Origin: a bacterium | Lineage (GTDB): Bacteria; Hydrothermota; Tepidihabitantia; Tepidihabitantales; Tepidihabitantaceae | NCBI GenBank assembly: GCA_035505375.1 | Contig: DATJQV010000081.1 | Coordinates: 30,596 to 94,595 of the forward strand | Direction: 5' to 3' | DNA: 64,000 nucleotides | Shown: positions 1,446 through 52,244 of the stretch, in pieces | Position numbering within the stretch: the stretch's first letter is position 1 | Layout of the letters: every line of letters starts with the position of its first letter | Program-made: the position numbers and the translations under genes | Notes under the pieces: model-generated | The model's input: the letters and a program-made list of their open reading frames with translations, nothing else | What the model was told of the DNA's origin: nothing | The model's database searches: none

Positions 1446-1831
1446 GTCTCGTCCTCGTTCTGCGCTCTAGCATCTAGCTTCTGGCTTCTCGCTTCGTTCG
1501 ACCTACCGTCCTCAATCTTGCAGCTTGCATCTTGCCCCTTGCACTCTGCATCTCCGTTCTTCTTGCGAAGCGCCGCCTTCACGCTCACGCCAGGTATCGC
1601 CCCCAGCCTCCCGGTCATCGCGCCAATCTCGTCGTTCGAGCCATCAACTATGACTGCGATGACAGACAGATTCCTCTCTCGATAGGGAATGCCCATCCGG
1701 CCGACGAGAATCCGACCGTACTCACTCAATATCTGGTTCACCTTGGGCGCGGTATCAAGCCGGTTCTCGACGAAGACGGCGACAACGCCAAGGCGGTGTT
1801 CATGGATAGCTTCAGACTCATTCATGATCAA
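1442..1831 (-). CDS. TM1266-like putative iron-only hydrogenase system regulator (ACT/NikR-C-like small protein) with a low-complexity C-terminal tail
   Basis: ORF track 129 aa. The core HRLGVVAVFVENRLDTAPKVNQILSEYGRILVGRMGIPYRERNLSVIAVIVDGSNDEIGAMTGRLGAIPGVSVKAA matches my recollection of the TM1266 family that neighbours hydG. Its stop TGA overlaps the hydG ATG (ATGA at 1442-1445). The last ~40 codons cross word repeats. Confidence 0.7.
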   Translation of the reverse strand: MIMNESEAIHEHRLGVVAVFVENRLDTAPKVNQILSEYGRILVGRMGIPYRERNLSVIAVIVDGSNDEIGAMTGRLGAIPGVSVKAALRKKNGDAECKGQDASCKIEDGRSNEARSQKLDARAQNEDET

Positions 1832-2127
1832 TTCTCCTAGAGTAGCTCTACGCTCTAGGCATGACGCTCCACGCCCGAAACCGAAAGCTCTGTCCGGCGT
1901 TATGCGTGATGCGTCTAGCTTAGCGCGGGCTTTTCAGATGAAGCGTTCCCTGTGGATTCAGGCGCTGCGCGCCCTCATCTCGGAAGTGGCTTCAGTTCTG
2001 ATTCCTCCGGGCCGGCAAAGCCTGCCCGTCAGACGTAGAAAGGATAATATGAAAAGCCCTATATGTCAAACGAGGCGAAAGAAACCAAGAGACAGAAGGA
2101 TCGAGGGATCGAGAGCCGGAAAGGCCA

Positions 2128-2435
2128 TCGGGGTCGCGACGAAAACCGCGGTCCGAACCGCTCTGCAAATCGCCGTCAGAATCGCCGCGGCAGTCGCGGC
2201 GAGACTCAAACGGCGAATCACCGTGCACTCCGCCACGGAAACCGGGCCGAGAGTCGACTTCCGAGTGCCCTTGCGAGTCGCCATGGAAACCGCCTCCCGA
2301 ACCGCTCCGGGAACGGTTCCCAAGGCGATTCCCGACATGACCTTTTCAGCCGATACCGCGGCTTAACGCATAGTAGATTAACAACTTAGCTACAAATGAG
2401 CGGAAAATGGGTAGCGTCCCTATTTAGAGGACCGA
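2128..2435 (+). repeat. 12-nt phased degenerate array A (19 units, 2133-2360) plus AT-richer flank (2367-2435); inverted homolog of 51636-51995
   Basis: Units in exact register from 2133: gtcgcgacgaaa accgcggtccga accgctctgcaa atcgccgtcaga atcgccgcggca ... Consensus is RYCGCC-NNNN-GA. It is coextensive with a possible ORF 2049-2366 (ATG preceded by AAAGGA) of period-4 sequence x-Ala-x-x. All six frames are largely open here, so coding is unproven. Confidence 0.8.
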
Positions 2436-15765: not shown

Positions 15766-18270
15766 CTACTGGCTCGACATTACCAGTCGCTTGTGGATGC
15801 GGTCGGTCTTGCCTGAGTGCTCATAGTCGAGCACGTACTCGTAGGTGCCCGGCGCGACATGACGGCTATCGTCATTGGTTCCATCCCAAGGTACGATGTG
15901 GACACCGGCGGTCATTGGCACTTGGTCATTGGTCATTAGTCTACGTACTCTCTCCCCGGCACGGGTGTAGATGGTCAGGCTCACCTTGCCGGCTTCGGGC
16001 AGGCCGATGACAAACGAGGTGCTAGTGCTGAATGGATTCGGGAAGTTGTGGATGGAGAAGCCCGGCATTAGGGTCAGGTTCAAGACGGCTGTGTCCGCAA
16101 CCAGCGTGTCATTGCCCAGGCGCCCGGCTATCAGGAACGTCCGTTGAGCAAGCGACGCCGTATCGCCTATCAAACCAGAAGACGCCGTCACATCGAGCGA
16201 GAACCAGCATGACTCGCCTGGGGCGACGTAGCCAAGGTCAGGTATTCCGTCACCATCCGTGTCCGTCAGGTCCTTCGCGCCGGCCGCGTCACGGAGCCAG
16301 ACGTTCCAACCCGCCGACGCGGACGGCCGCGCCACTTCGACAACTCCGCCAGTGTCTCCCTGAACCAGAGCATAGAATCGATAGGTCTTGCCTTGGCCGG
16401 CCTGGAGCTGGTCCGACTGGTCCGGCCCTATCTGCAACGACTGCGGATACGTCTGCACCGAAGAGCTGACCTTGTCGTTGGCACGGTTCACATCACTCGC
16501 CAGCATCGTCGAGCAACTTACCACCCATTGACCCGGCGGCGCTACCCATTCTGAGAACGTCAGGTCCATGGTGGAGTCAGGCGAGAGCGCCTGCGTTACA
16601 GTCACCGTCCTGCTATAGCCCGTACTGATGCGGAACTGCACCCCGAACAATCGCTCCGCAGTGGTTCCGAAGTTCTTGATTCTCACCTTCGGCATCGCGG
16701 TGTCGCCGGCGCGCAACAAGCCAGGCGGCGCGAGAATCGCGACCGCCCCGACATCGTGCCTCGGCGGGCCGTTCACCTGAATCGACTCTCTGAAGGTATC
16801 ATTGGCCGGTTTCTGGTCACCGGCCAGCGACGTGTAACACGTGACCGGGACTGAACCGACCGGACCCGCAGTCCACGCAGGGAACGCCAGTGTTTCCTGC
16901 GGCACCGAGACCAGCGTCTCCTGTACAGTTTGGGAATAACCGGAGCCGATTTCCATCGTCACCGGGAGTGTACCCGAAGTCAGACCGAAGTTGCGGACGA
17001 CAGCACGCGGGACATACGTGCTACCTGAATCGGCGATTCCGGGTGGCGACAGAATGGCTACCGGGCCGACGTCGAGAACGCCGTTGGTCTTGATGAGAAA
17101 GACGTCATCGCTTCCTGCACCGGCCGAGGCGGTGTAGCCCGCGACGACGTAGCCGCCATCGGCGGCCTGCCGGACCGAGTAGCCTTCGTTGTCGCCCCTG
17201 CCGCCATAGGTTCTGGTCCAGAGCGTGTCGCCCTGAGAATCAGTCTTGACGAGATAGACGTCACCGGGTCCTACAAAATACTGGGAGAAGGTCGCGCCGA
17301 CAATAATGTAGCCACCATCGGCAGTCTGCTGGACCGAGGAGCCGTACCCGCCGGGCGCTCTCCCATACACTCTGGTCCAAAGAGTATCGCCCTGAGCATT
17401 GGTCTTGATGAGATAGACATTAGAGTTGGTAGGTGTCCCCGGACCGAAGGAAGAGGTCCCGCCCCCGATGATATAGCCGCCGTCAGTAGTCTGTTGGACT
17501 GAGTTGCCCACGTCATCGCTTGTCCCGCCATAAGTTCTGGTCCAGAGCGTATCGCCTTGGCCGTTGGTCTTGACAAGGTAGACGTCATACCCCCCTGCAC
17601 CAAACGAGCCGGTACTGCCGGCGATGATGAAGCCGCCATCGGCAGTCTGACAAACCGAGTTCCCCACATCGGTGCTGGCCCCGCCCAAAGCTCGGGTCCA
17701 GAGCGTATCGCCTGAGCTATTTGTCTTGATGAGATAGACATTGGCGCTGTTCGGTGTGCCGGGACCGAAGGAGTAGGTGTAGCCTGCAATGACGTAGCCG
17801 CCATCCGAAGTCTGCTCGACGGAGTTGCCCACTTCGTCATCCAGCCTGCCAATAGCTCTAGTCCAGAGTGTGTCGCCATGAGCGTCGGTCTTGATGAGAT
17901 AGACATTGGCGTAGTCGGGCGCGCCCGGGCCAAAAGTGTTGGTGTAGCCCGCGATGATGTAGCCGCCATCCGAAGTCTGCTGGACAGAGTAGCCCTCGTC
18001 ATCGCCTGTCCCGCCATAGGTTCTGGTCCAAAGCGTATCGCCTTGAGCGTTAGTCTTGATGAGATAGACATCATAATTCCCTGCACCAAAGGACGCAGTC
18101 AGCCCCGCAATGATGTAGCCGCCATCCGAAGACTGCTGGACAGACCGGCCCTCGTCGTCATCTGGCCCGCCGTAGGTTCTCGCCCAGTTCGTCTGGGCAG
18201 AGGCAATCGAAGCAAGGCAGCCAGCGGACAGCAAGACGCTGACCACCGGCAAGACGCCGATCCTCATCAC
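15766..18270 (-). CDS. Large secreted repeat protein: about 7 tandem ~50-aa beta-propeller-like units, CARDB-like domains, T9SS/FlgD-like C-terminal domain
   Basis: 834 aa. Signal MMRIGVLPVVSVLLSAGC. Repeats of GDTLWTRTYGG..DD.G.SVQQT.DGGYIIAG.T.SFG.G..DVYLIKTN. C-terminus ...LTIYTRAGERVRRLM...VPWDGTNDDSRHVAPGTYEYVLDY. Confidence 0.8.
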   Translation of the reverse strand: MMRIGVLPVVSVLLSAGCLASIASAQTNWARTYGGPDDDEGRSVQQSSDGGYIIAGLTASFGAGNYDVYLIKTNAQGDTLWTRTYGGTGDDEGYSVQQTSDGGYIIAGYTNTFGPGAPDYANVYLIKTDAHGDTLWTRAIGRLDDEVGNSVEQTSDGGYVIAGYTYSFGPGTPNSANVYLIKTNSSGDTLWTRALGGASTDVGNSVCQTADGGFIIAGSTGSFGAGGYDVYLVKTNGQGDTLWTRTYGGTSDDVGNSVQQTTDGGYIIGGGTSSFGPGTPTNSNVYLIKTNAQGDTLWTRVYGRAPGGYGSSVQQTADGGYIIVGATFSQYFVGPGDVYLVKTDSQGDTLWTRTYGGRGDNEGYSVRQAADGGYVVAGYTASAGAGSDDVFLIKTNGVLDVGPVAILSPPGIADSGSTYVPRAVVRNFGLTSGTLPVTMEIGSGYSQTVQETLVSVPQETLAFPAWTAGPVGSVPVTCYTSLAGDQKPANDTFRESIQVNGPPRHDVGAVAILAPPGLLRAGDTAMPKVRIKNFGTTAERLFGVQFRISTGYSRTVTVTQALSPDSTMDLTFSEWVAPPGQWVVSCSTMLASDVNRANDKVSSSVQTYPQSLQIGPDQSDQLQAGQGKTYRFYALVQGDTGGVVEVARPSASAGWNVWLRDAAGAKDLTDTDGDGIPDLGYVAPGESCWFSLDVTASSGLIGDTASLAQRTFLIAGRLGNDTLVADTAVLNLTLMPGFSIHNFPNPFSTSTSFVIGLPEAGKVSLTIYTRAGERVRRLMTNDQVPMTAGVHIVPWDGTNDDSRHVAPGTYEYVLDYEHSGKTDRIHKRLVMSSQ

Positions 18271-18559: not shown

Positions 18560-19501
18560 AGCGCCACAGTAGTCATGGCTTGGCTCCGCTTTAGCGCAAA
18601 ACAGGACTTCAAGGCACGCACGTCTACAGAGCTACTATGCAACACTAACTAGTCAATCTAACTTCAATGATTACGTGTCTTACGTATACAGCCGCAGCTA
18701 TTTCTTCTACCATCACTGGCTTCTACTAGACCGTCTACCAGACCGTCCGGTAGACCGTCTGGTGGACGGTCCAGTAGTGGGTCCAGCGGTCAGACCTGTG
18801 GTTGGTATCGTAAACCATAGTTAGATTCGACCGGTAGTCTAACTATCGGATGGACTGACGGTTGCACTACTGGGTGGTATTCTGAGCGGACTATGGGTTG
18901 GTCTTGTGGATTAACAGGCAGACGGTTTGCCGATTGAACCTGCGTACGGACCTCAGAGCAGTACGGATGACTGTCTGTAGGGCGGTCTAGGAGACTGTGA
19001 GTTAAACGCTATGCCGGACTAGGCCTGGCTAGATGCGTGCGGTCAGGCTTCGGGCTTGGTCAGCGGGGGTGACCAAGCCGGCGAGGTGGCGAACCGTTTG
19101 TCAGACAGCACCGGTATGGCTTGGCGGTGTCTGCGAAGAGGAAGTCGAGAATTCCCCTCGAACTGTGTTCAAGGGAGCGTAGCAGGATGAATCTGAAGGA
19201 GCCATTGTCGGTGCGTCCGGGCGTGCGGCGAGTTGAGCTTTCGGGCGAGCTTGGCAGGGAGCAATGCTCTGAGCAGTTGTTTGAGCGATGCGAGGTCCAC
19301 TGGCGGGAGCATGCGAAGATGCAGGTTGAGGTCGACGTGGAGGTGCAGTTGGGATTCCGGTTGGATGAGCTATGCAGTTAGCCATGGACGATGCCATGGA
19401 AGGAGCGATGCGGCGTGCGATGTGAGGTGCTGTGTTCGCGTCTCTGCCGAGTCTGCGGTTCTGACCTTGGCGCTCTTGGCGGTTGCGACAGCCCGGGTCT
19501 T
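18560..19501 (+). repeat. 12-nt phased degenerate array C (65 units, 18722-19501) preceded by an AT-richer flank (about 18560-18721)
   Basis: Units stay in register with no indel. Early examples: tctactagaccg (18722), tctaccagaccg, tccggtagaccg. Later examples: cgtagcaggatg (19178 = 18722 + 38x12), aatctgaaggag, ..., cgatgtgaggtg (19418). The left half has consensus TC-N8-GG with stops in all frames. The right half has consensus C-N8-GAG/GTG. Confidence 0.85.
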
Positions 19502-19565
19502 GCGGCTCCTAGATTCCGGCCGGAGAATCTGCGTTATCTGCGTAATCTGCGGTTGTGCCTCTCGG

Positions 19566-25594: not shown

Positions 25595-25694
25595 GAACGG
25601 CTAACAGCCTACAGCCAACAGCTAGCAGCTCGGATACGTTTCCCGGTTCCAGGTCTGCAGTTCATCCCTCATCCTTCATCCTTCATCCTTACGC

Positions 25695-27065: not shown

Positions 27066-27250
27066 GCCGCCCAAGCCGGACCACCGGCGCAAGACCAGAC
27101 GAGTGCAGATGCTAGATGCTAGAATGCAGAACACAGAAGTTCGGGGCGCTCAAGCCTCCGCAATCTCGCTTCTCGCTTCTGACTTCGACCATGATTCCTC
27201 GTCCATCTGCGCCGGAATAACCAGTAGCAGCCCGAGAACCGAACGGACAA

Positions 27251-27289
27251 TCCAGAATTCAGAAACCAGAAATCAGAATTCAGAATTCC
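27251..27289 (+). repeat. Word-repeat family F1, copy 2 (upstream of the PIN/TRAM gene)
   Basis: tccagaattcagaaaccagaaatcagaattcagaattcc. Confidence 0.7.
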
Positions 27290-30475: not shown

Positions 30476-30535
30476 GAAGCGAGATACTACCGAAGAGAAC
30501 TGCGGGCGCAACCGCAGATTACGCAGATGACGCGG

Positions 30536-30588: not shown

Positions 30589-30849
30589 GGAAGGAGACGA
30601 CCGCTGATGTCGCAGATTCAGGATTCGGACAGAGGAGAAATCAGAATCGAGGACGCGGAGGGAACGTTCACAGATTACGCCGATTCCGCCGACTAGAGAC
30701 GCGGACGGCGAGAACCGCAGACGACGCGCAGCGTCGCCCTGAGCGAGTATGACGAGTCGAAGGGTCTCGCCCGGAAAGGACTACCACGGATGTCGCAGGT
30801 TCCTAACCAGAACCCCTGAACCCCAGAACCCGAACGCTGGAGCGCGGGC

Positions 30850-31098
30850 TCAGGACGAACCGAAGAGCCGGAGTTCGAGTTCGCCGCGGTCGATTCCGAG
30901 ATGATGCGCCACGCTTGCCAGGATGTACTCAAGCGTGCCCACGCGAAGCGACTCGTGGGCCGGTATCGTGACGTGGTGCTCGCCACGCTCGTGCGTCGTC
31001 AGGCGCATGTGGCTGCCGACGCAATGCGTCACCTGGTAGCCGAAATGCCCGAGCAGGTGCGCCAGGTGCTGGCCCGAGACATCGCGCGGCAGCTTCAC
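30850..31098 (-). CDS. hicA: HicA-like toxin (YcfA/HicA mRNA interferase fold)
   Basis: From the in-frame GTG at 31098: VKLPRDVSGQHLAHLLGHFGYQVTHCVGSHMRLTTHERGEHHVTIPAHESLRVGTLEYILASVAHHLGI.... This shows the G-S-H motif and size typical of HicA. GTGA overlap with the upstream gene. Confidence 0.65.
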   Translation of the reverse strand: MKLPRDVSGQHLAHLLGHFGYQVTHCVGSHMRLTTHERGEHHVTIPAHESLRVGTLEYILASVAHHLGIDRGELELRLFGSS

Positions 31099-31307
31099 GG
31101 CGTGATTGTCTCTTCGCGCACGACCTGCACGAACCGCAGCTTGATCGCGTCCGGCTTGGCGCACTCCGCGGCGTGGCACACCGCGGCCTCGCGCACGTTG
31201 GTGTAGAGTTCCTCCAGCGTATCGGCTTCGGTCACGATGCACCCGCACGACGACCGGGCAACAAACCCGCCGTCCCGCTCCTCGACCATGAACTCAACCG
31301 TTGCCAT
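31095..31307 (-). CDS. hicB: HicB-like antitoxin (UPF0150 fold)
   Basis: 70 aa. MATVEFMVEERDGGFVARSSCGCIVTEADTLEELYTNVREAAVCH... follows the HicB N-domain pattern (..E.DGG(Y/F)VA......C.T.G.TLEE....(I/V).EA...). TATAAT lies about 35 nt upstream (plus-strand attata at 31344-31349). Confidence 0.6.
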   Translation of the reverse strand: MATVEFMVEERDGGFVARSSCGCIVTEADTLEELYTNVREAAVCHAAECAKPDAIKLRFVQVVREETITP

Positions 31308-31470
31308 TAATCCTGCCTTTCAGGTACTGATGAGGCACATACCATTATACTCGACCACAACAGAGCCCGCCAGATAGGACAACCGCAGATTACGCAGGTC
31401 AGCCGCCACCTGGCGCTCAAGTTCGGACACTGGAAACTGGTAACTGGGAACTGGAAACTCGCAGCCAAAG

Positions 31471-31746
31471 GCTGCGCTGAAAGCTCGTCAGAAAGCTCGT
31501 TTCAGAGTTCGCCTGAAAGTACCTTAGAAAGCTTACTCGAAAGCTCACTTCATAGCATCTTCCATTGCTCAGCTCAAAGCTCGTCACATCGCATCGCGCA
31601 TCGCTCATCTCAAGGCTCAGCGCATTGCTTCTCACATCGCTCGCTGCAAAGCTCCGTCGAAAGCTCGCGTCAGAGTTCTTTTGAAAGCTCGATTCAAAGC
31701 TCATCTCAAAGCTCGTTTCATCGCTTCTTCGAAAGCTCCCCAAGAG
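31471..31746 (-). repeat. 12-nt phased degenerate array D (23 units)
   Basis: A plus-strand unit start (G-C/T-T/A-C/T, mostly GCTC) occurs at every 12th position from 31471: 31483, 31495, ..., 31735. I checked all 23 by hand. Units look like gctcgtcagaaa gctcgtttcaga gttcgcctgaaa .... Plus-strand 31579-31606 is the reverse complement of a 28-nt block matching array C 19403-19430 at 23/28 positions. Confidence 0.85.
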
Positions 31747-31991
31747 GCAAGCCCCCAGGCGACCCCTATATGCGGATTTTCCGCGACACGACAGTATTTA
31801 ACCGACCGAGAGTAATTGAGTTACGCTCGGTTGGCGAGTGTCACTGAACCTCCAGTTCTTTTTGCCGTCTCGGTGAACCCGGAGTCCACTCGTTCATCGT
31901 TCCACGTCTCCGGTTTTGCCTTTTGGCTCTTGGCTTCTGCCTCTTGACCTCGTCCCCGCCGTCGTGTCCTAAGTCCTCCCCGTTCGGGCAT

Positions 31992-32031
31992 TTCTTGTTT
32001 CTGGTCTCTGAATTCTGGTTTCTGAATTATC
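31992..32031 (-). repeat. Word-repeat family F1, copy 5
   Basis: The plus strand reads ttcttgtttctggtctctgaattctggtttctgaattatc. Confidence 0.65.
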
Positions 32032-32063
32032 CGGTCTTCTCTGTCCCCTACACGGCTGGGGGA

Positions 32064-32423
32064 GTTCCTGTCCCCCATCCGGCCCTCGTTCCTGCGGCCG
32101 GCCCAGCCCCGGAAACAGCGGCCGTTCCAGCCGCTGCAACGGCAACCGCTCCGGCCCCATGCTCGGCCCTCGCACCAGCCTCCGGCACTCGAACCCCAAC
32201 AGCGCCTGATCCCGGCACTGCTCCTGCGCCCTGAACCGCACCTGGTCCTCGTATCGCAACGGCTACCGGCCCTGCTGCCGCAACGGCTTTCGTGCCTGTG
32301 CCCGTAACAGCATCTGTTCCCGGCCCCGAAACAGCGTCCGTTCCGGCCCACGTTCCCGCACCCGAAACAGCCGCCGTTCCTGCTTCTGCAACGGTATCCA
32401 GCCCTGCGCCTGCCCCATTATTC
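32064..32423 (-). repeat. 12-nt phased degenerate array E (30 units, partial 24-nt super-period)
   Basis: Plus-strand units in register: gttcctgtcccc (32064) ... gaaacagcggcc (32112) gttccagccgct gcaacggcaacc ... gaaacagccgcc (32364) gttcctgcttct gcaacggtatcc. From gaaacagcggcc (32112) onward, 21 of 26 units start with G. The minus strand is GGA-rich. A purine-rich (minus-strand) flank lies at 32460-32640. Confidence 0.85.
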
Positions 32424-32776
32424 CTGTGCGTCCGCATCCGTGCGTCCGCTTGACTCCGGGCCATGCACGAATAACATCCCTACTGATGCAAGGCCAAATC
32501 CGGCCAAACCCGACGTCTCCGTCGCTGCTCGGAACTTCGTCCTCAGGTCCTGACGTGAATCCTCCATCCTCCGACCTCGGTCTTTCTTCCTCGCCTCACT
32601 CTTCAGTCCTCTTTCCTCAGTCCTTTTCTCGTCCCGCGCCCCGCCGCAAGCGTATTGCCTCGCCTGTCCGCAACCCCGCCCGAAATGAGTGAGGTTTCCC
32701 TGAAATCCCGTGAGCAGTTGTCCCCGGAGACGCGTGGCGCTTGTCGGCCCGTACGTCCTAGCGGGTTTTTAGGTGC

Positions 32777-32805
32777 TTGACAGCACGATGGGCTCGACCG
32801 ATAAT
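32777..32805 (+). promoter_or_regulatory. Near-consensus sigma70-type promoter facing the RM-gene stub and the downstream cassette
   Basis: TTGACA (32777-32782), 17-nt spacer, GATAAT (32800-32805). Confidence 0.45.
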
Positions 32806-32810
32806 CGAGC

Positions 32811-33041
32811 ATGTCGTGCCCAAGTGTGGCAAGGCCCGCGTCCCGCGACCTTATTTCCTCGCCCGTCCGCAACACCGCCCGACATGAGCAGGCGTCTCCG
32901 CAATTCCTTGACCGACTCGACCAGAACCGCGAGGTCTTCCTCTCCGGCGACTACAAAGAAGAACAACTCCGCCTTGAGTTCCTCAACCCCTTCTTCACCG
33001 GGCTTGGCTGGGACATGTGTGAGAAAGGAGGCTCATCGTGA
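32811..33041 (+). pseudogene. 5' remnant of an Eco57I-type (type IIG) restriction-modification / N6-DNA methylase gene, truncated after about 60 codons
   Basis: Translation ...FLDRLDQNREVFLSGDYKEEQLRLEFLNPFFTGLGWDM matches the characteristic N-terminus (..SGKYNE.QLR.EF(I/L)NPFF.ALGWD(V/M)) of this enzyme family as I recall it. Homology stops at GWDM, where the GGAGG and GTG start of the next gene begin. Confidence 0.6.
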
Positions 33042-34240
33042 GCGTTTTCGGCAAGCCGCTTGACGTGGTCGCCAGCACAGACATCGAGGCCCTGAAGTCC
33101 ACCGGAGCCCAAGAGTCCCAGTATCTAGACTACAAGAGAGACGCGTATGGGAGCGACACGAAAGAACTGCTGAGAGACATCACTTCGTTCGCAAACGCCT
33201 ACGGCGGCGAGGTCATTGTTGGGGTCGAAGAAGACGGGGACGGACGGCCGCAGAGCATCCCTGGTCTCAATGAGTACAAGTTGGAGTGCACTCGCTACGA
33301 ACAGAGCGCAATGACCGGCATTGATCCGAGAATCCCCGGACTCAAGGTCTACGCTGTCCCATTCGCCGACCCAGCGAAAGGGGTGATCATTGTCAGCGTT
33401 CCACGGAGCAGCCGTGCTCCGCACATGGTTACCGTTGGCGGCGAGGACAGATTCTGGAGGCGTCACGGCAGGCACAAGAGCAGAATGACGACAGCGGACA
33501 TCGGCGAGTCGTTCAGGTTCGGACGTGAGTACCTGAAACTCTCGGAAGACTACCTGGAGGGTGCCAAGAGAGCAGCCCTGAACTCAGGGATCTCCGAGCC
33601 AAGGCTGGTTCTTGGCGCGCTGCCGGCATTGCAGCCCGAGCGACCCATCGGACCCGGCGAGGCATGGGCCAGAGAAATCCTGGCGAGGCCGCACGGCAAG
33701 CAGAATCGCGCGTCGCTGTTGCCCGAGATGGACCCCCAGCACGAGGAGATACGACCCACGTTGAGAGGCTTGGTCAGATTGTGGCGGGCTGAGCCTCAAC
33801 AACCGTCCCTTGCGTTACACAGGAATGGATACCTAGAGCTCCGCAACAGGTGCATCACGGGCATCGGCGGTGTTCGCGAAGACGAGATCGAGTTTGGGGG
33901 CTTCGCATCGCTCTGTGTCGATTTCTTCCGGCTCGCGTCTCAAGTCTACCATAAGCTAGGGTATGAAGGCGAAGTCTTCGCCTTCGGTGCCATTGCGAAG
34001 ACGGAAGGACTGAGACTACGCGACATGCCGGTCGCCCTCACCGGCGGTTCCGACCATCGCTCCCGCGACGCCGACCCGCGGGGATGTCCGGAAGTCCCCA
34101 ACCTAGTCGTAGAACCGTGGTCGTACTCGACGAGTGAGACACCTGAGTCACAAGCTCAACGGTTCGCGGACGTGGTATACAACGCATTCGGGCACGAGCG
34201 CGCACCCTCGATTAAGGACAGCCAATATGGTCACGTCTGA
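33038..34240 (+). CDS. AlbA_2 / Schlafen-like (divergent AAA, putative nucleic-acid-binding) domain protein with an unknown ~260-aa C-terminal region
   Basis: 400 aa. GGAGG lies 7 nt upstream of the GTG. N-terminus ...DIEALKSTGAQESQYLDYKRDAYGSDTKELLRDITSFANAYGGEVIVGVEEDGDGRP... fits the E..LE(F/Y)K......(I/L)..(I/L).AFAN..GG.(I/L).(I/V)GV.D.G pattern of AlbA_2. Confidence 0.65.
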   Translation: MSVFGKPLDVVASTDIEALKSTGAQESQYLDYKRDAYGSDTKELLRDITSFANAYGGEVIVGVEEDGDGRPQSIPGLNEYKLECTRYEQSAMTGIDPRIPGLKVYAVPFADPAKGVIIVSVPRSSRAPHMVTVGGEDRFWRRHGRHKSRMTTADIGESFRFGREYLKLSEDYLEGAKRAALNSGISEPRLVLGALPALQPERPIGPGEAWAREILARPHGKQNRASLLPEMDPQHEEIRPTLRGLVRLWRAEPQQPSLALHRNGYLELRNRCITGIGGVREDEIEFGGFASLCVDFFRLASQVYHKLGYEGEVFAFGAIAKTEGLRLRDMPVALTGGSDHRSRDADPRGCPEVPNLVVEPWSYSTSETPESQAQRFADVVYNAFGHERAPSIKDSQYGHV

Positions 34241-35336: not shown

Positions 35337-37664
35337 GTGCAGAAGGGCACGAGCATGAATAGCGATTCACTGAGTCCGAGCGTTCCCCGCATTCCTGGTC
35401 TCAGGGATTCCGTGTCCGGGGCCGCGTACAAGAAGGGCGATGTCATTGGCCAGAAGTATGAGGTCTATGGCATTCTGGGAGCAGGCGGATTCGGCATCGT
35501 CTTTCTGGTCTATTCCCACGAGACCAAGTATGTATACGCCCTGAAGACCTTCCGGGATGAATACCTCGCAGATTCTCATGCGAGAGAGCGGTTTCGCAAG
35601 GAGGCAAGTGTCTGGGTGGACCTGGAGCGACACCCGTATCTTGTGCGGGCCTCCTACGTGGAAGAAGTCGCCGGCAGGTTGTTTGTCGTCATGGAGCATA
35701 TTGCTCCAGACGAGCACGGGCTGAATACACTCGAGGGCTATCTGCGACAAAGGCCACCTGACCTGGCCCAGAGCCTGCGCTGGGCAATCCAGTTCTGCTA
35801 CGGAATGGAATACGCGTACTCAAAGGGCATCCGTTGTCATCGGGACATCAAGCCTGCTAATATCATGATAAGTCAGGACAAGACGGTGAAGATTACAGAC
35901 TTCGGCCTGGCGGGGGTGCTCGGCCCGTCTCAGGCCGTCTCGGGAATCAGGTTGAACATCCAGCAGGGAACGGTCGGTCTGTCAGGCCAGACAATGGAAG
36001 GGACAGGCTTTGGCACACCGACCCACATGTCTCCGGAGCAGTTTACTGACGCTGCCTCCTGTGACGAGAGAAGCGACATCTACTCCTTCGGGGTTGTCCT
36101 GTTCCAGATGGCGAGCGGCGGCCGGCTTCCCTTCCTTACGCCTTTGCCCGAGGTGATAGGAGAATCGGAATCGGCCCGGTTCTGGAGGGAGATGCATCGC
36201 CTGCACACAAGAGCTCCCGTGCCAAAGCTCAACTCGCCGCTGTTTTCCATCATCCACCGCTGTATGGAGAAGGAACCCGGAAAGAGATACAGGGGCTTCG
36301 AGGAACTCCGCGGGGTCCTCGAACCATTGCTCCGACGTCTGACCGGAGAAGCCGTGAGACCGACCGAGTTGGGAACGCTAGAGGCTTGGGAGTGGAGCAA
36401 CAAGGGTTTCAGCCTCGACAGCCTGGGCCGCCACGAAGAGGCGCTTCGCTGCTTTGACAAAGCCCTGGAACTTGACCCGCGGGACGCAGCAGTCTGGAAC
36501 AACAAGGGAACCAGCCTCGGCAGTTTGGGCCGACACGAGGAGGCAATCCGCTGCTACGACAAGGCTCTGGAACTTGACCCGCAGCACACAAGCGCTTGGT
36601 ACAACAAGGGAACCGTCTTCTCCGGCCTGCGCCGCCACGAAGAGGCAATTCGCTGCTACGACAAGGCCTTGGAACTTGACTCGCGTCTGGCGTCGGCTTG
36701 GGAAAACAAGGGTACCAGCATGGGCAGACTAGGCCGCCAAGAGGAGGCTATCCGCTGCTACGACAAGGCTCTGGAACTCGACCCGCGAGATGCAAAAGCA
36801 TGGCGCAACAAGGGCAAGAGACTCGCCGACCTGAGTCGCTACGAAGAGGCGCTTATCTGCTTTGACAAGGCTCGGGAACTTGAGCCGCAGAACACGGAGG
36901 TCTGGTACGACAAGGGGTTCTGCCTCCACCACCTGAGTCGCTACAGTGAAGCAATCCGCTGCTTTGATAAGGCCTTGGAACTCGACCCGCGTCTGGTGTC
37001 GGCTTGGAACAACAAGGCTGTCAGCTTAAGCAGACTGGGCCGCCATGAGGAGCAGATTCGCTGCTACGACAAGGCCCTAGAACTCGACCCGCAGGATGCA
37101 CTAACCTGGCACAACAAGGGCCGTGGCCTCGGCGGCCTGCGCCGCTACGAGGAGGCGATTCGCTGCATCGACAAGGCCCTAGAGCTTGACCCGCAGAAGG
37201 CTGCGGCCTGGTACGACAAGGGGTTCTGCCTCCACCACCTGAATCGCTACGGTGAGGCAATCCACTGCTTTGACGAGGCCTTGGAACTCGACCCGCGGGA
37301 CGCAAGTACCTGGTACAACAAGGGTAGCGACCTCCATACTCTGGGCCGCTACGAGGAGGCGATTCGCTGCTTTGACAAGGCCTCGGAACTTGACCCGCGG
37401 AACGCAAGAACCTGGTACAACAAGGGCTGTTGCCTTGATGACCTAGGCAGGCCCGAGGAGGCCATAGGCTGCTTTGACAAAACCCTGGAACTTGACCCGC
37501 GGTACGGCATGGCATGGTACGCAAGGGCACTGGCACAGGAGAAACTTGGCCGAAGACAGGAGGCGGTTCAGTCGTACAGGCAGTTCATCGCGCTCGCCCC
37601 GGCCCAGCACGCGGAAGAAATCGCATACGCTCGGCAGCGTGTCCGCGAACTGGAAGCGAAGTAA
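35337..37664 (+). CDS. Hanks-type Ser/Thr protein kinase fused to 12 tandem TPR units
   Basis: GAGGFGIVF (G-loop), YALK, HRDIKPANIM, DFGLAG, GTPTHMSPEQ. These are followed by 12 units of ..W.NKG..L..LGRHEEAIRCYDKALELDP.... An alternative start is the ATG at 35355. Confidence 0.9.
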   Translation: MQKGTSMNSDSLSPSVPRIPGLRDSVSGAAYKKGDVIGQKYEVYGILGAGGFGIVFLVYSHETKYVYALKTFRDEYLADSHARERFRKEASVWVDLERHPYLVRASYVEEVAGRLFVVMEHIAPDEHGLNTLEGYLRQRPPDLAQSLRWAIQFCYGMEYAYSKGIRCHRDIKPANIMISQDKTVKITDFGLAGVLGPSQAVSGIRLNIQQGTVGLSGQTMEGTGFGTPTHMSPEQFTDAASCDERSDIYSFGVVLFQMASGGRLPFLTPLPEVIGESESARFWREMHRLHTRAPVPKLNSPLFSIIHRCMEKEPGKRYRGFEELRGVLEPLLRRLTGEAVRPTELGTLEAWEWSNKGFSLDSLGRHEEALRCFDKALELDPRDAAVWNNKGTSLGSLGRHEEAIRCYDKALELDPQHTSAWYNKGTVFSGLRRHEEAIRCYDKALELDSRLASAWENKGTSMGRLGRQEEAIRCYDKALELDPRDAKAWRNKGKRLADLSRYEEALICFDKARELEPQNTEVWYDKGFCLHHLSRYSEAIRCFDKALELDPRLVSAWNNKAVSLSRLGRHEEQIRCYDKALELDPQDALTWHNKGRGLGGLRRYEEAIRCIDKALELDPQKAAAWYDKGFCLHHLNRYGEAIHCFDEALELDPRDASTWYNKGSDLHTLGRYEEAIRCFDKASELDPRNARTWYNKGCCLDDLGRPEEAIGCFDKTLELDPRYGMAWYARALAQEKLGRRQEAVQSYRQFIALAPAQHAEEIAYARQRVRELEAK
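36370..37640 (+). repeat. Tandem ~102-nt DNA repeats encoding the TPR array
   Basis: Recurrent strings such as gaggaggc(a/g)at(c/t)cgctgctacgacaaggc(t/c)ctggaact(t/c)gacccgc recur at ~102-nt spacing. Confidence 0.8.
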
Positions 37665-44601: not shown

Positions 44602-45419
44602 CCCCGGATTCCCCTTCCCCCGTCCCAGTCGACAATCGACAATCGGCAATCGACAATCCCACTTCTCCGGCCTCAATCGACAATCGACAATCGAAAATCG
44701 AAAATCCCCCGTCCCCTGTCCTGGACGTCCGCCTCGACCTGTTTGAGGGCCCGGTCGAATTGCTGCTCTACCTTGTCCGAAAGAGCGAACTGGACGTGTC
44801 CGACGTACCGGTGGGCCGCCTGACTGACGACTTCCTCGGTGCGGTCCGCCAGGCCCGGAAACTGGACATGGAATCGGCCTCGGACTTCCTCATCATGGCC
44901 GCGGTCCTGCTCCGGATGAAGACCCGCGCCCTGCTCCCGCGCAGCCCGGAAGAGGACCTGACCACTCCTACCGTCAGCCTCGACCAGATCATGGACGAGT
45001 TCCGCCGCTACCAGCAGGTCGCCCGCATGCTTTCCGACAAGGAGTCGGAGCGCCGGCTGCTTTACCCGCGCGCCGGCGAGTCGCCTCGCGCCAAGCAGGC
45101 CGAAAGCGAGGACGTCGTTGCCCTCGCGGCCGCGCTGAAGCGGGTGCTGGCTAAACTCACCCCGGAACGCGTCGCCCAGATTGCGCCGCCCCGGGTCAGA
45201 CTGGAAGACAAGATCGCCGACCTGCGTCGCCTCATGCGCGAACGCCGGTCGGCTGACTTCGAGGAAGTCGTGACCGGGACCACAATCGCCGAAGTCATCG
45301 TGCTGTTCATCGCCGTACTCGAGCTGGTCCGGCTGGGCGAGCTGCGCGTCCGCCAGCCGGACGAATTCGGCACGATCCGACTGGAGTTGCGGGAAGCGGA
45401 CCCCGTTCCCAACGGATAG
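44598..45419 (+). CDS. scpA: Segregation and condensation protein A, N-terminus encoded by tandem word repeats
   Basis: ...LDLFEGPVELLLYLVRKSELDVSDVPVGRLTDDFL...ASDFLIMAAVLLRMKTRALLP.... ATGA overlap with the upstream stop. The first ~45 codons cross the CAATCGACA tandem words. Confidence 0.85.
   Translation: MTPDSPSPVPVDNRQSAIDNPTSPASIDNRQSKIENPPSPVLDVRLDLFEGPVELLLYLVRKSELDVSDVPVGRLTDDFLGAVRQARKLDMESASDFLIMAAVLLRMKTRALLPRSPEEDLTTPTVSLDQIMDEFRRYQQVARMLSDKESERRLLYPRAGESPRAKQAESEDVVALAAALKRVLAKLTPERVAQIAPPRVRLEDKIADLRRLMRERRSADFEEVVTGTTIAEVIVLFIAVLELVRLGELRVRQPDEFGTIRLELREADPVPNG
44625..44705 (+). repeat. Tandem 8-9-nt words (CAATCGACA / AATCGAAA)
   Basis: gtcgacaatcgacaatcggcaatcgacaatccc...tcaatcgacaatcgacaatcgaaaatcgaaaatcc. 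Confidence 0.8.
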
Positions 45420-49195: not shown

Positions 49196-51604
49196 GTGAA
49201 CGTCCGTCCCGCCCGTGGTCCGTACAACCGAAGCGCCCTTGCCCACAACCGGGCCGCGTGCCCCATGGCCGTGCTGTTGGCCATTTGCTGCTGTCTGTCG
49301 GCGGCCAGCGGACAATCCGTGGAAACCACCATCTACCTACCCGGAATGGTAAACCCGGGGTGCCTGGCGTACGACTCGGCCAACAACACCATCTATGTCG
49401 GCGGCGATGGCACCTGTGTGCTCGCGATTGATGGGGCTACGAACCAGAAGATTGCCTGGATCCCAGCCGGGTCGAATGTGGGGGCCATCTGCTACAACCC
49501 GACGAACAACAGGGTCTACTGCGCGAACTGCTGGGACTCCACGGTGACGGTGATAGACGGCGCGACCAACGGGGTCATCGCCACCGTGATAACAGGCAGC
49601 AACCCTCTTGCCCTCTGTTACAACCCGGCCAACAACAAGATCTACTGCGCGAACAACGGGAGCAACAACGTGACCGTGATTGACGGCGCGACCAACGGTG
49701 TCGTCGCGACCGTGCCCGCAGGCAACACGCCTTGGGCTATCTGCTACAATCCTCAGAACAACAGAGTCTACTGCGCGAACTCCGATTTCCTTGGCAACGT
49801 TACAGTAATTGACGGCGCGACTAATGGGGTCGTCGCGACCGTGGCCACAGGCAGCTTTCCTCAGGCCCTCTGTTACAACCCGACCAACAACAGGGTCTAC
49901 AGCGCGAACATGGGGAGCGACAACGTGACCGTGATTGACGGGGCGACCAACGGCGTTATCGCTACCGTGGCCTCAGGCCGTTTCCCAGGGGCATTCTGCT
50001 ACAACCCGACCAACAACAAGGTCTACTGCGTGAATAGGGGAGGCGTAAGCGTGACCGTGATTGACGGCGCGACCGACAGCGTCATCGCGACCACGGGCGC
50101 AGGCAGCGGACCGAACGCCCTCTGCTACGACGCGACCAACAACAATGTCTACTGCGCGAACTTGGGCGACACCACTGTGACCGTGATTGACGGTGTGACT
50201 AACGGGGTCATCGCGACCGTGGCCGCAGGCAACGGACCGTACGCCCTCTGCTACAACCCAACCAACTACAAGGTCTACAGCGCGAATCGGTACGGCAACA
50301 ACGTGACCGTGATTGACGGGGCGACCAACGGCGTTATCACGACCGTGGCCGCAGGCCGCTTCCCTCGGGCACTCTGCTACAACCCGACCGACAATAGGGT
50401 CTACTGCGCGAACGATAGCAGCGCCAACGTGACCGTGATTGACGGCGCTGCCGACAGCATCATCACCACCGTTACTGCAGGTAGCAACCCTCATGCCCTC
50501 TGCCATAACCCGGCCAACAACAAGGTCTACTCCGCGAACAAGGGCAGCAGCAACGTGACCGTGATTGACGGCGCGACCAACGCGGTCATCGCCACCGTGA
50601 TAACAGGTAGCAACCCTCTTGCCCTCTGTTACAACTCGGCCAACGACAAGGTCTACTGCGCGAACGAGGGCAGCGACAACGTGACCGTGATTGACGGTGC
50701 GACGAACGGGGTCATTGTCACAGTGACTGCAGGTAGCAACCCTCTTGCCCTCTGCTACAATCCGGCCAACAACAAGGTCTACTGCGCGAACGAGGGCAGC
50801 GGCGGCGTGACCGTGATTGACGGCGCGACCAACGGGGTCATTGCCAACGTGATGACAGGTAGCAACCCTCTTGCCCTCTGCTACAACCCGACCGACAACA
50901 AGGTCTACTGCGCGAACGGTGGCAGCGGCAACGTAGCCGTGATTGACGGCGCGGCCAACACGGTCATCGCGACCGTGGCCGCAGGCACTAACCCTTGCGC
51001 TCTCGGCTACAATCCGACCAACAACAAGGTATACTGCGCCAACGATAGTAGTGGCAACGTGACCGTGATAGACGGCGCGACAAATGCGGTCGTCGCCACC
51101 GTGATAACAGGTAGCAACCCTCTTGCTCTCTGCTACAACCCGACCATCAACAAGGTCTACTGCGCGAACGGTGGCAGCAACGGCGTGACCGTGATAGACG
51201 GCGCGACCGACGGCGTTGGCGTGACCATCGGGGTCGGCGGGTACCCGATTGATCTAGCCTGGAACCCGGCCCAGAGCCGGATGTATGTCGCGAACTACTA
51301 TGGCTCCACCATCTCAGTCTTGCGCAATTCGCACCCGGGAATCGAGGAGAGCCCCAAGCCGCAGGTCGCATGCTCCAAGCCGTTGCCGACCGTCATCCGC
51401 GGCGTGCTGCTCCTGCCGAAAGCCACAAGCCGCAAGCCGCACGCTGCAAGCTTGCTCGACATCAGCGGCAGGAAGGTGATGGACCTGCGGCCGGGCCCGA
51501 ATGATGTGCGGGCGCTGGCGCCGGGCGTGTACTTCGTGAGGACAGCCCAAACCCAGACTCAAGTCCAAGCCCAAGCCATCCGCAAGGTCGTCCTGACGCG
51601 CTAG
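49196..51604 (+). CDS. Secreted YVTN-family beta-propeller repeat protein (about 15 units) with T9SS-type C-terminal domain
   Basis: AAAGGAGG lies 5 nt before the GTG at 49196. Signal ...MAVLLAICCCLSAASGQ. Units of GSNPLALCYNPANNKVYCAN.GS.NVTVIDGATNGVIATV. C-terminus ...LLDISGRKVMDLRPGPNDVRALAPGVYFVRT...IRKVVLTR. Confidence 0.85.
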   Translation: MNVRPARGPYNRSALAHNRAACPMAVLLAICCCLSAASGQSVETTIYLPGMVNPGCLAYDSANNTIYVGGDGTCVLAIDGATNQKIAWIPAGSNVGAICYNPTNNRVYCANCWDSTVTVIDGATNGVIATVITGSNPLALCYNPANNKIYCANNGSNNVTVIDGATNGVVATVPAGNTPWAICYNPQNNRVYCANSDFLGNVTVIDGATNGVVATVATGSFPQALCYNPTNNRVYSANMGSDNVTVIDGATNGVIATVASGRFPGAFCYNPTNNKVYCVNRGGVSVTVIDGATDSVIATTGAGSGPNALCYDATNNNVYCANLGDTTVTVIDGVTNGVIATVAAGNGPYALCYNPTNYKVYSANRYGNNVTVIDGATNGVITTVAAGRFPRALCYNPTDNRVYCANDSSANVTVIDGAADSIITTVTAGSNPHALCHNPANNKVYSANKGSSNVTVIDGATNAVIATVITGSNPLALCYNSANDKVYCANEGSDNVTVIDGATNGVIVTVTAGSNPLALCYNPANNKVYCANEGSGGVTVIDGATNGVIANVMTGSNPLALCYNPTDNKVYCANGGSGNVAVIDGAANTVIATVAAGTNPCALGYNPTNNKVYCANDSSGNVTVIDGATNAVVATVITGSNPLALCYNPTINKVYCANGGSNGVTVIDGATDGVGVTIGVGGYPIDLAWNPAQSRMYVANYYGSTISVLRNSHPGIEESPKPQVACSKPLPTVIRGVLLLPKATSRKPHAASLLDISGRKVMDLRPGPNDVRALAPGVYFVRTAQTQTQVQAQAIRKVVLTR

Positions 51605-51635: not shown

Positions 51636-52112
51636 TTCTAAATGGGGACGCTACCCATTTTCCGTTCATCTGTAGCTAAGTTATTAAAACACGACGCTTT
51701 AAGCCGCAATATTGGCTGAAAAGATCACGTCGGGAATCGCCCTGGGGACCGTTCCGGGAACGGTTCGGGGGGTGGTTCGGAACGTGACTCTCAAGGGAAC
51801 CTGGATGGCGATTCTCGGCCCGGTTTGCGGGGTCACGTACGCCGCGGTTCGCACTCCGATTCCGGAGCTGATTCTCAGGAGCGGTTCCAGGGCGACCTGA
51901 ACGGTGATTCGCCGTTTGAGTCTCACCGCAACTGCCGCGGCGATTCCGACGGCGGTCTGCGGAGTGGTTTGGACCGCGGTTTCCGTCGCGACTCCCAGCA
52001 TGACTTCAGAGCTCACGAGGCACATTGGTTCTGTCTCCCGCAAGGACACAAAGGGGTCGGGGACGGAAATCGACTCTCTCCGCTCGGTGCGCTTGGTGTC
52101 GTTCTGGTTCAA
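51636..52112 (-). repeat. 12-nt phased degenerate array B (34 units, 51705-52112) with AT-richer flank (51636-51704); inverted homolog of array A
   Basis: Plus-strand units in register from 51705: cgcaatattggc tgaaaagatcac gtcgggaatcgc cctggggaccgt tccgggaacggt .... Clear homology to the reverse complement of 2128-2431 up to about 51995, with an extra 60 nt (5 units). It is coextensive with track ORF 51699..52112(-), which ends at the same TAA as the array-A ORF. Confidence 0.85.
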
Positions 52113-52244
52113 AATCGGATTCAGTGAAACCGGCTGCGGTTTGACTTCTTCACGGCCCTGTCATATCATTAAAATACCGGAGCAGCCGAAGTCGTGGCTG
52201 CCCCGAAGTCTCATAAGCAGATATCATTGCCCGGAGGCAAACAA

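Follow-up and report, generated by a model that had tools for sequence, protein, structure and literature searches.

The window analysed here is a stretch of 64,000 nucleotides (nt) of bacterial DNA (positions 30,596 to 94,595 on the forward strand of contig DATJQV010000081.1, assembly GCA_035505375.1; GTDB lineage Hydrothermota, Tepidihabitantaceae). It holds five tandem arrays with a 12-nt period, named A to E, and this work is primarily concerned with D and E, which lie in tandem 5′ of the hicBA genes. Both are very probably non-coding arrays of the satellite type, and they belong to an array class found throughout one lineage of candidate division WOR-3. The spacer that they occupy (31.3-32.7 kb) is built wholly of tandem repeats. 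Gene callers place no gene within the 1.5 kb between hicB and a divergent open reading frame (ORF) of 76 aa, and identical copies of the D/E region are present in three other assemblies. The window itself belongs to a metagenome contig of 353.5 kb. The features of the locus, in window coordinates, are as follows.

30850-31098, minus strand: hicA.
31095-31307, minus strand: hicB, 70 aa.
31371-31344, minus strand: predicted hicBA promoter, a GGCGGGC box with a TATAAT −10 element (31349-31344), downstream of both D and E.
31380-31397, minus strand: exact 18-mer CTGCGTAATCTGCGGTTG, also found at 19538-19555 (plus) and 30509-30526 (minus), each copy in sense orientation 5′ of a gene.
31425-31459, minus strand: heptamer tandem repeat (GGAAACT, five copies on the plus strand) abutting D.
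31460-31476, minus strand: GC-rich hairpin with a 7-bp stem (CGCAGCC-TTT-GGCTGCG) where D ends on the promoter side, with AGTTTCC after it; weakly terminator-like.
31471-31746, minus strand: array D, 23 units of 12 nt, with the hicBA-sense unit GAGC-TWTS-NRNN.
31772-31784: small hairpin GCGGA-AAA-TCCGC in the flank distal to D.
31801-31835, minus strand: strong hairpin in the non-periodic flank distal to D.
31916-32028, minus strand: 7/14-nt tandem repeats filling the spacer between E and D.
32064-32423, minus strand: array E, 30 units of 12 nt; its hicBA-sense strand is rich in G.
32530-32640, minus strand: purine-rich, GGA-dense, heptamer-like region distal to E, earlier described as the flank of E.
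32777-32805, plus strand: divergent promoter (TTGACA-17-GATAAT) of a Schlafen/AlbA_2 gene, which bounds the repeat-built intergenic region.

Periodicity was measured by autocorrelation (identity by lag) over the window, with z scores calculated against dinucleotide-preserving shuffles. In D, identity at lag 12 is 0.564 (z = 10); at lags 24 and 36 it is 0.59-0.60, at or above the lag-12 value, which indicates higher-order structure imposed on the 12-nt unit. Lags 3, 6, and 9 are depressed (0.12-0.19), and the periodicity of D is therefore not codon periodicity. Each D unit comprises 8 constrained positions, forming a near-invariant 8-mer, and 4 variable ones; 19 different tetramers fill the 4-nt spacers of the 23 units. 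The first-pass annotation, which was made from the sequence alone, had reported a G-[CT]-[TA]-[CT] core at every 12th position of the plus strand. G at unit position 1 does hold in 23/23 units, but the full core holds in 22/23, the sole exception being the first unit (GCTG); GCTC itself is found in 14 of the 23. For E, both the 30 in-phase units and the 24-nt super-period were borne out, with 24 nt being the dominant period (identity 0.589, z = 13, versus 0.437, z = 5.7, at lag 12). Unit position 5 is C in 30/30 E units and position 7 is G in 27/30; read on the minus strand, the 24-nt higher-order unit is GCNGGAAC-NNNN / GCTGTTTC-GGGN. A second copy is absent for D and for E. A CRISPR array was considered and rejected, as this would require near-identical repeats of ∼23-55 nt that alternate with unique spacers of about the same length, rather than 8 constrained and 4 variable nucleotides.

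The same kind of periodicity was seen by autocorrelation in the remaining three arrays of the window, two of which are followed by a predicted promoter.

2066-2338, minus strand: array A, family 1, unit ..GCGRTTC..
2069-2041, minus strand: predicted promoter downstream of A (TTGACA-17-TATCCT); A ends ∼0-60 nt upstream of it.
18722-19500, plus strand: array C, ∼64 units (∼780 bp) in a single register; its 3′ part (19200-19440) has a D-type unit.
51725-51995, plus strand: array B, an inverted paralogue of A.
52141-52169, plus strand: predicted promoter after B (TTGACT-17-TATCAT).

A and B form an inverted pair of ∼365-430 nt each (83% identity), 49 kb apart. Identity is 82.6% across the array and its ∼70-nt flank alike, and the copies differ by one indel of 60 nt (5 units). 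The segment between the two copies could potentially be inverted by way of this pair. Neither a terminal inverted repeat nor a target duplication, features that would mark a mobile interspersed repeat (MITE/REP/BIME-like), was observed where A and B end. In C, the unit consensus drifts, yet a single register is kept across all 64 units. The unit of D resembles that of the 3′ part of C (position weight matrix [PWM] correlation, r = 0.76). A reported 23/28 match between a block of D and one of C is correct, and no composition-only shuffle of D reached it (0/200). However, shuffles that keep the 12-nt column profile of D reached it in 28/200 cases, and the likeness of C and D is therefore one of shared unit consensus rather than of a specific shared segment. 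The view that the arrays form a related class, and not a set of independent low-complexity runs, rests on the 83% identity of A and B, the unit common to D and the 3′ part of C, and the 12-nt register found throughout.

Two further proposed links among the five arrays fared less well. A resemblance between the D flank and the A/B flank is at chance level, its Smith-Waterman score being reached by 98/500 shuffles; the three flank motifs stand in D in the opposite order, relative to the array, from that in B, and ACACGAC is missing from A. Likewise, no flank homology to A/B above chance was found for D, E, or C. The rule that the purine-rich strand begins beside the non-periodic flank holds for C, D, and E (purine fraction, 0.55-0.62), on whose sense strand GGA and GAG are abundant, whereas A (0.44) and B (0.49) do not follow it. 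Relatives break the rule as well: on the gene-sense strand, many of their arrays are rich in pyrimidines.

The first-pass annotation had also pointed to a frame with Ala at the second position of each four-codon unit, and this raised the idea that the arrays are genes for tetrapeptide-repeat proteins (x-A-x-x, or alternatively xxSF or GxGx). Frames are indeed open across D (108 aa, 31417-31743, minus strand) and E (138 aa, 32048-32464, minus strand), and some arrays carry called ORFs, including one of 90 aa in A and one of 212 aa in the related locus L121. Nevertheless, stop codons, codon usage, and the A/B substitution pattern all speak against coding. The single in-frame TAG noted in D and the stops in E are consistent with our six-frame stop counts. 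Stop frequency in 17 arrays equals the expectation from column-preserving shuffles, with C carrying at least 4 stops in each of the six frames; the frames across D and E are open because the unit consensus cannot form stops in those frames. Mismatches between arrays A and B fall 13/13/15 by codon position (n = 41), which excludes coding constraint on both strands, whatever the frame. The 25 real genes scored for codon usage have log-odds of 0.317 ± 0.088 (HicB, 0.39; HicA, 0.21), compared with at most 0.14 for all array frames, −0.24 for the D ORF, and −0.30 for the E ORF. GC content at third codon positions is 0.53-0.55 in the D and E ORFs and 0.42-0.59 in D overall, versus ∼0.8 in genes. Neither ORF has a Pfam match, no Shine-Dalgarno sequence precedes the E ORF, and an exact-protein look-up of the Ala-frame ORF of A returned no record. 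Gene callers called no gene in D or E across four assemblies. Arrays D and E encode no protein, and the peptide reading, which we regard as wholly improbable, is rejected as contradicted by the present data. The hypothetical ORFs of 73-212 aa called over other arrays (window 2066-2338, minus strand; L121, 4261-4899; L119, 1376-1687; L116, 363-584) are likely spurious protein database entries.

Related loci, designated here by L numbers, were used to follow the arrays across species. RadA is 76% identical to that of the metagenome-assembled genome (MAG) of L008 and 62% identical to that of a candidate division WOR-3 MAG, and homologues of the TM1266-like protein encoded downstream of array A are annotated as WOR-3. 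A metagenome scan with a MATE alignment retrieved 28 loci with the synteny hicB-hicA-MATE-GNAT-p192-RadA, in which RadA is 92-94% and HicB 68-87% identical. An array in 12-nt register lies 5′ of hicBA in 12 of the 28, as well as in L008 (loci with such an array include L089, L092, L093/L103, L094/L095, L096, L105, L111 with two arrays, L113, and L115). For a second series of loci, the anchor was the TM1266-like/hydG operon that array A precedes, and arrays occupy this slot in L116, L117, L118, L119, and L121. The array class thus recurs in other contigs, at both the hicBA-MATE slot and the hydrogenase-maturation slot. A specific link to toxin-antitoxin or defence genes, which had been suggested, was not upheld: hydrogenase-maturation and lipoprotein genes are among the others with an array in front of them, and one array has convergent genes on its two sides. 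Overall, ∼23 arrays were found in 313 kb of the lineage, versus 1 comparable match in control loci of other phyla totalling 1.15 Mb.

By unit sequence, most of these arrays fall into three families.

Family 1 (..GCGRTTC..): A, B, L093, L096, L116, L118, and L119.
Family 2 (GAGCTTTS): D, the 3′ part of C, and L089.
Family 3 (GTTGCT): L092, L094, and L115, and more loosely L113, L111b, and L120/L121.

Several further units, including that of E, are singletons. A proposed identity of family 2 (D) with inverted family 3 (L094/L115) was not convincing, with a PWM correlation of only 0.43-0.60. Family 1 is dispersed, with a conserved 47-nt array start, and orientation relative to the downstream gene is kept within each family. 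A single slot holds at least three unit families across species, and arrays are generally not alignable between species. In the close pair L120/L121, identity is 94% with no indel. The L111 array is young and very regular (lag-12 identity, 0.77), with a 36-nt higher-order repeat, and the contigs of L003, L111, and L115 terminate inside arrays. Arrays in relatives measure ∼250-430 bp (21-36 units), and C ∼780 bp; detected extents, which include ∼40-70 nt of detection padding, cluster at 264-483 nt, and no arrays of intermediate size were found. In short, the slots remain occupied by arrays of the same register and similar size while the unit sequence is replaced. The arrays change by whole-unit steps and carry higher-order repeats; together with the whole-unit A/B indel, the replacement of arrays between relatives gives them the character of minisatellites.

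The array 5′ of hicBA also marks a synteny breakpoint. Across L089-L115, the hicBA-MATE-GNAT-RadA side is kept, and the other side, which in the window carries the Schlafen/AlbA_2 gene, differs in almost every species. Beside the array of L008 (15040-15460), a 41-nt unit, GCTGTCATTGCGAGGCCGCTCCGGCGG.CGTGGCAATCCTC, occurs twice and GGTCATTCCGACGGAGC three times.

Since E, D, hicB, and hicA share an orientation, it had been proposed that the arrays belong to a long hicBA leader or a noncoding RNA (ncRNA). In its full form, this explanation holds that the arrays are transcribed in the hicBA sense, as an ncRNA or long 5′ leader, and serve as a scaffold or sponge with ∼23-30 phased protein-binding units. 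The position of the predicted promoters bears directly on it. In loci where hicB follows an intergenic region, orthologues share the motif GTGGCGGGCGG-N10-12-TGTATAAT (also written GTGGCGGGCGG-N10-12-(T)GTATAAT), and this GTGGCGGGCGG-TATAAT promoter motif lies 33-45 nt 5′ of the hicB start codon in the window, L089, L094, L105, L111, and L115. The conserved predicted promoter (31371-31344, minus strand) sits between D and hicB, and D and E are probably not part of the hicBA leader. On the minus strand, the search 5′ of D and of E turned up no comparable promoter-like site, and simple scans for an upstream promoter and a downstream terminator of each array's own gave no consistent pattern. In a similar arrangement, A and its orthologues end just 5′ of a canonical TTGACA-17-TATCMT promoter, which is followed by a conserved leader of ∼220 nt. 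Taken over the arrays, predicted promoters lie ∼0-290 nt downstream. Of the genes 3′ of the three copies of CTGCGTAATCTGCGGTTG, one set is the DJ-1-like/Dtd operon (19538), another is MATE (30509), and the third is hicBA (31380). Tandem 9-nt relatives of the 18-mer, (N)ATCTGCG(N), occur in L089 and L111, and CTGCGTAATCTGCGGTTG may be a shared regulatory site.

Folding gives a divided picture. The sense strand of E folds significantly better than shuffles (minimum free energy [MFE] z scores of −4.4 with flanks and −3.5 without, versus +0.6 and +1.7 for the antisense strand), and favourable sense-strand folding is also seen in B and in the 5′ part of C, with the other arrays mixed. In favour of an RNA, too, are the GC-rich hairpin with AGUUUCC directly after D, a terminator-like hairpin between array and promoter in L093, and the array orientation kept within families. 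On the other side, shuffles fold better than either strand of D (z scores of +1.9/+1.7) or of the 3′ part of C (+2.1/+2.1), no fold is common to the arrays, and the sense-strand purine/G bias is lost in relatives. Rfam 15 gave no match at the gathering score over the whole window and, in E-value mode, none over 30800-33200 (E ≤ 1) or over 1780-2480; no tRNA or tmRNA was found. For a covariation test of E, no orthologue was found, and a search of the relatives found no E-like 24-nt arrays. As such, an RNA role is possible for E and is not a property of the whole array class, and we consider a transcribed scaffold or leader distinctly unlikely as an account of the arrays.

Our best reading, held tentatively and at slightly less than an even chance, is that the arrays are a fast-turnover satellite whose register is constrained and which may be an architectural DNA element or one that binds protein in phase. 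Under this proposal, in-register slippage or unequal exchange would generate and remodel the arrays, which would lie, for the most part, just upstream of predicted sigma-70-type core promoters (that of hicBA in the present case) and outside the leader. Some constraint would act on the register, on the unit anatomy of 8 constrained and 4 free positions, and on array length. We infer this constraint from the near-invariant 8-mer of D beside 19/23 distinct spacers, the register kept in C, and the narrow size range. Just 5′ of promoters, the arrays may then serve as a phased, low-specificity platform or architectural spacer: a polymerising DNA-binding protein might bind every 12 bp, or the array might shape or insulate the promoter region, with an effect exerted neither via a transcript nor via a peptide. 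That the arrays act at the DNA level as a platform upstream of promoters is the weakest step, and we hold it to be somewhat more doubtful than not. A still bolder version, which we regard as rather unlikely, is that the 12-bp (or 12-nt) register over ∼25-35 units, and not the sequence, is what is required, making this an undescribed bacterial cis element. Such an element would be a track for protein polymerisation, on DNA 5′ of promoters or on a transcript, that sets or insulates the expression of a neighbouring gene, and its unit sequence could change freely provided that register, 8 + 4 anatomy, and length are kept.

Several observations weigh against a function at the DNA level. The W/S (curvature-type) profile was searched for a pattern common to all array families, and none was found; as no W/S or sequence feature is common to the families, one protein able to bind all of them would have to be of very low specificity. 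No candidate for a partner binding protein was found, and none is encoded beside the arrays; the 70-aa HicB has no match to a DNA-binding domain in Pfam. In L100, a thirteenth array-bearing locus among the 28, the array sits elsewhere, between convergent genes. No array lies 5′ of hicBA in L090, L098, and L108, and the TM1266-like/hydG slot is empty in L122 and L123. The 41 A/B array mismatches are spread evenly over unit positions, as expected of neutral drift, and the favourable folding of E would fit an RNA role better.

Many of the same observations suit the main rival, namely that the arrays are a neutral or selfish satellite, a functionless by-product of slippage-prone replication in a lineage with intergenic DNA consisting largely of short tandem repeats, and that their 12-bp period is simply passed on through in-register exchange. 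The 7/14-nt repeats are 17-fold and 7-fold enriched in the same loci, and the entire 31.3-32.7 kb spacer is tandem repeat. Divergence between A and B shows no trend over unit positions and does not differ between array and flank (82.6% identity), some orthologous slots lack an array, unit families are swapped between species, and L120/L121 evolve like ordinary DNA (94%, no indel). What this account explains less readily is the near-invariant 8-mer of D beside 19/23 distinct 4-nt spacers, the lack of any register slip across 64 diverged units in C, and the narrow range of array sizes. Nor would it lead one to expect that slots remain occupied despite sequence replacement or that orientation to the downstream gene is kept within families, and inert DNA is normally deleted from bacterial genomes. 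On balance, we consider the neutral satellite somewhat unlikely. With modest confidence, we rank the DNA-level platform first, the neutral satellite as its main rival, and a leader or ncRNA third, with the peptide reading rejected.

Short intergenic tandem repeats and iteron arrays are already known in bacteria. Among the latter are parC of R1, the heptad arrays to which the omega repressor binds, and tubC of pBtoxis with its 12-bp unit. The tubC site upstream of tubR consists of direct repeats in blocks, from which TubR spreads and represses the promoter (PMC6009700). In common with such iteron and centromere-operator arrays, the present ones are short head-to-tail direct repeats immediately 5′ of a promoter; here, direct repeats in a fixed 12-bp register (23-64 units) stand beside a predicted promoter. 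In iteron systems, one protein (dimer) binds per repeat and polymerises along the DNA, and 12-bp and 7-bp registers are known. However, these systems have 4-12 near-identical units beside the gene for the binding protein, on plasmids or phages, whereas the present arrays, each of 21-65 degenerate units, are spread over many sites of the chromosome, and one genome holds several unrelated unit sequences; no partner gene was identified. By analogy, iteron/operator arrays such as tubC appear to be the closest counterpart (PMC6009700).

The short tandemly repeated repetitive (STRR) heptamers of cyanobacteria and the TAACTGA repeats of Beggiatoaceae are intergenic heptamer direct repeats (PMC4679880). 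They too are lineage-specific short tandem repeats located 5′ of genes, with a regulatory role only proposed, and the present WOR-3 loci are also rich in heptamers. The present arrays differ in having a unit of 12 bp rather than 7, in their length (250-780 bp) and degeneracy, and in their combination of constrained and free positions; their register is conserved and their unit sequence is not, and they lie upstream of predicted promoters rather than beside start codons. Minisatellites, or variable number tandem repeats, and eukaryotic satellite DNA (the "library" model) offer a third comparison. Shared features are higher-order repeats, concerted evolution, a monomer length that is kept while its sequence diverges, replacement of variants between species, and assembly breaks inside arrays. 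Unlike these, the present arrays occupy gene-proximal syntenic slots of a compact bacterial genome, have a narrow length range, and differ between close relatives by substitutions rather than copy number. Multi-site protein-sponge RNAs such as CsrB/RsmZ, and leaders with phased triplets of the TRAP type, likewise carry many phased short motifs on one strand, as do C, D, and E with GGA/GAG. In contrast to those RNAs, there are no GGA units in hairpin loops, D is unstructured, the period is 12 rather than 5-6, and there is no Rfam match. A limited literature search found no description of 12-bp intergenic tandem arrays or of WOR-3 repeats, nor of long degenerate arrays at syntenic chromosomal slots in which register and size, but not sequence, are conserved.

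Other elements were observed in the window and its relatives. These are listed below, with window coordinates unless a locus is named.

1825-2069, minus strand: conserved leader of the TM1266-like/hydG/hydF operon, also at L116 620-915, L117 3650-4010, L118 3695-4010, L120 4706-5003, and L123 4646-5003.
2405-2425 (minus strand) and 51640-51660 (plus strand): AAATGGGGAC-type hairpins, also at L093 6850-6915.
1404-1544, 25596-25690, 27249-27288, 31425-31459, and 44629-44706: examples of 7/14-nt tandem repeats.
17370-18071, 36393-37506, and 49484-51213: long coding repeats.

The hyd leader, ∼220 nt in length, lies between the promoter at 2069-2041 and the operon. One block, GTCTGACGGGCAGGCTTTGCCGGCCCGGAGGAATCAGAAC (1995-2034), is almost invariant over ∼45 nt, with hairpin arms that change together in L123, and a second, GGGAACGCTTCATCTGA, is at 1934-1950. 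The leader has no Rfam match; it is a candidate for an RNA that regulates the [FeFe]-hydrogenase maturation genes in cis. The hairpins have the form AAATGGGGAC...(G)TCCCCATTT, preceded by an A-tract and followed by a T-tract. They stand after upstream genes or arrays and resemble bidirectional terminators; those of A and B lie within the duplicated segment. The 7- and 14-nt tandem repeats have many unit sequences and are ∼17 and ∼7 times denser, respectively, than in 78 control loci from other phyla. Some reach into coding ends, namely the N-terminus of hydG and the C-terminal tail of the TM1266-like protein (homologues, 81-177 aa). The coding repeats, which are unrelated to the 12-nt arrays, comprise 165-nt units in the gene of an 834-aa protein, TPR repeats of 102/306 nt, and 126-nt beta-propeller repeats in a protein sorted by the type IX secretion system (T9SS).

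In practical terms, the arrays break assemblies and are sometimes miscalled as hypothetical proteins (90-212 aa). If the constraints on register and length are functional, the arrays would represent a DNA (or RNA) element, regulatory or architectural, whose identity lies in its phase and not in its sequence, and elements of this kind are invisible to motif- and homology-based annotation. They would then open a way to study how genes are regulated in WOR-3, a phylum for which metagenome-assembled genomes are the main source of knowledge. If they are instead neutral, they would still be an unusual satellite-like DNA that persists at syntenic, gene-proximal sites in a compact bacterial genome.

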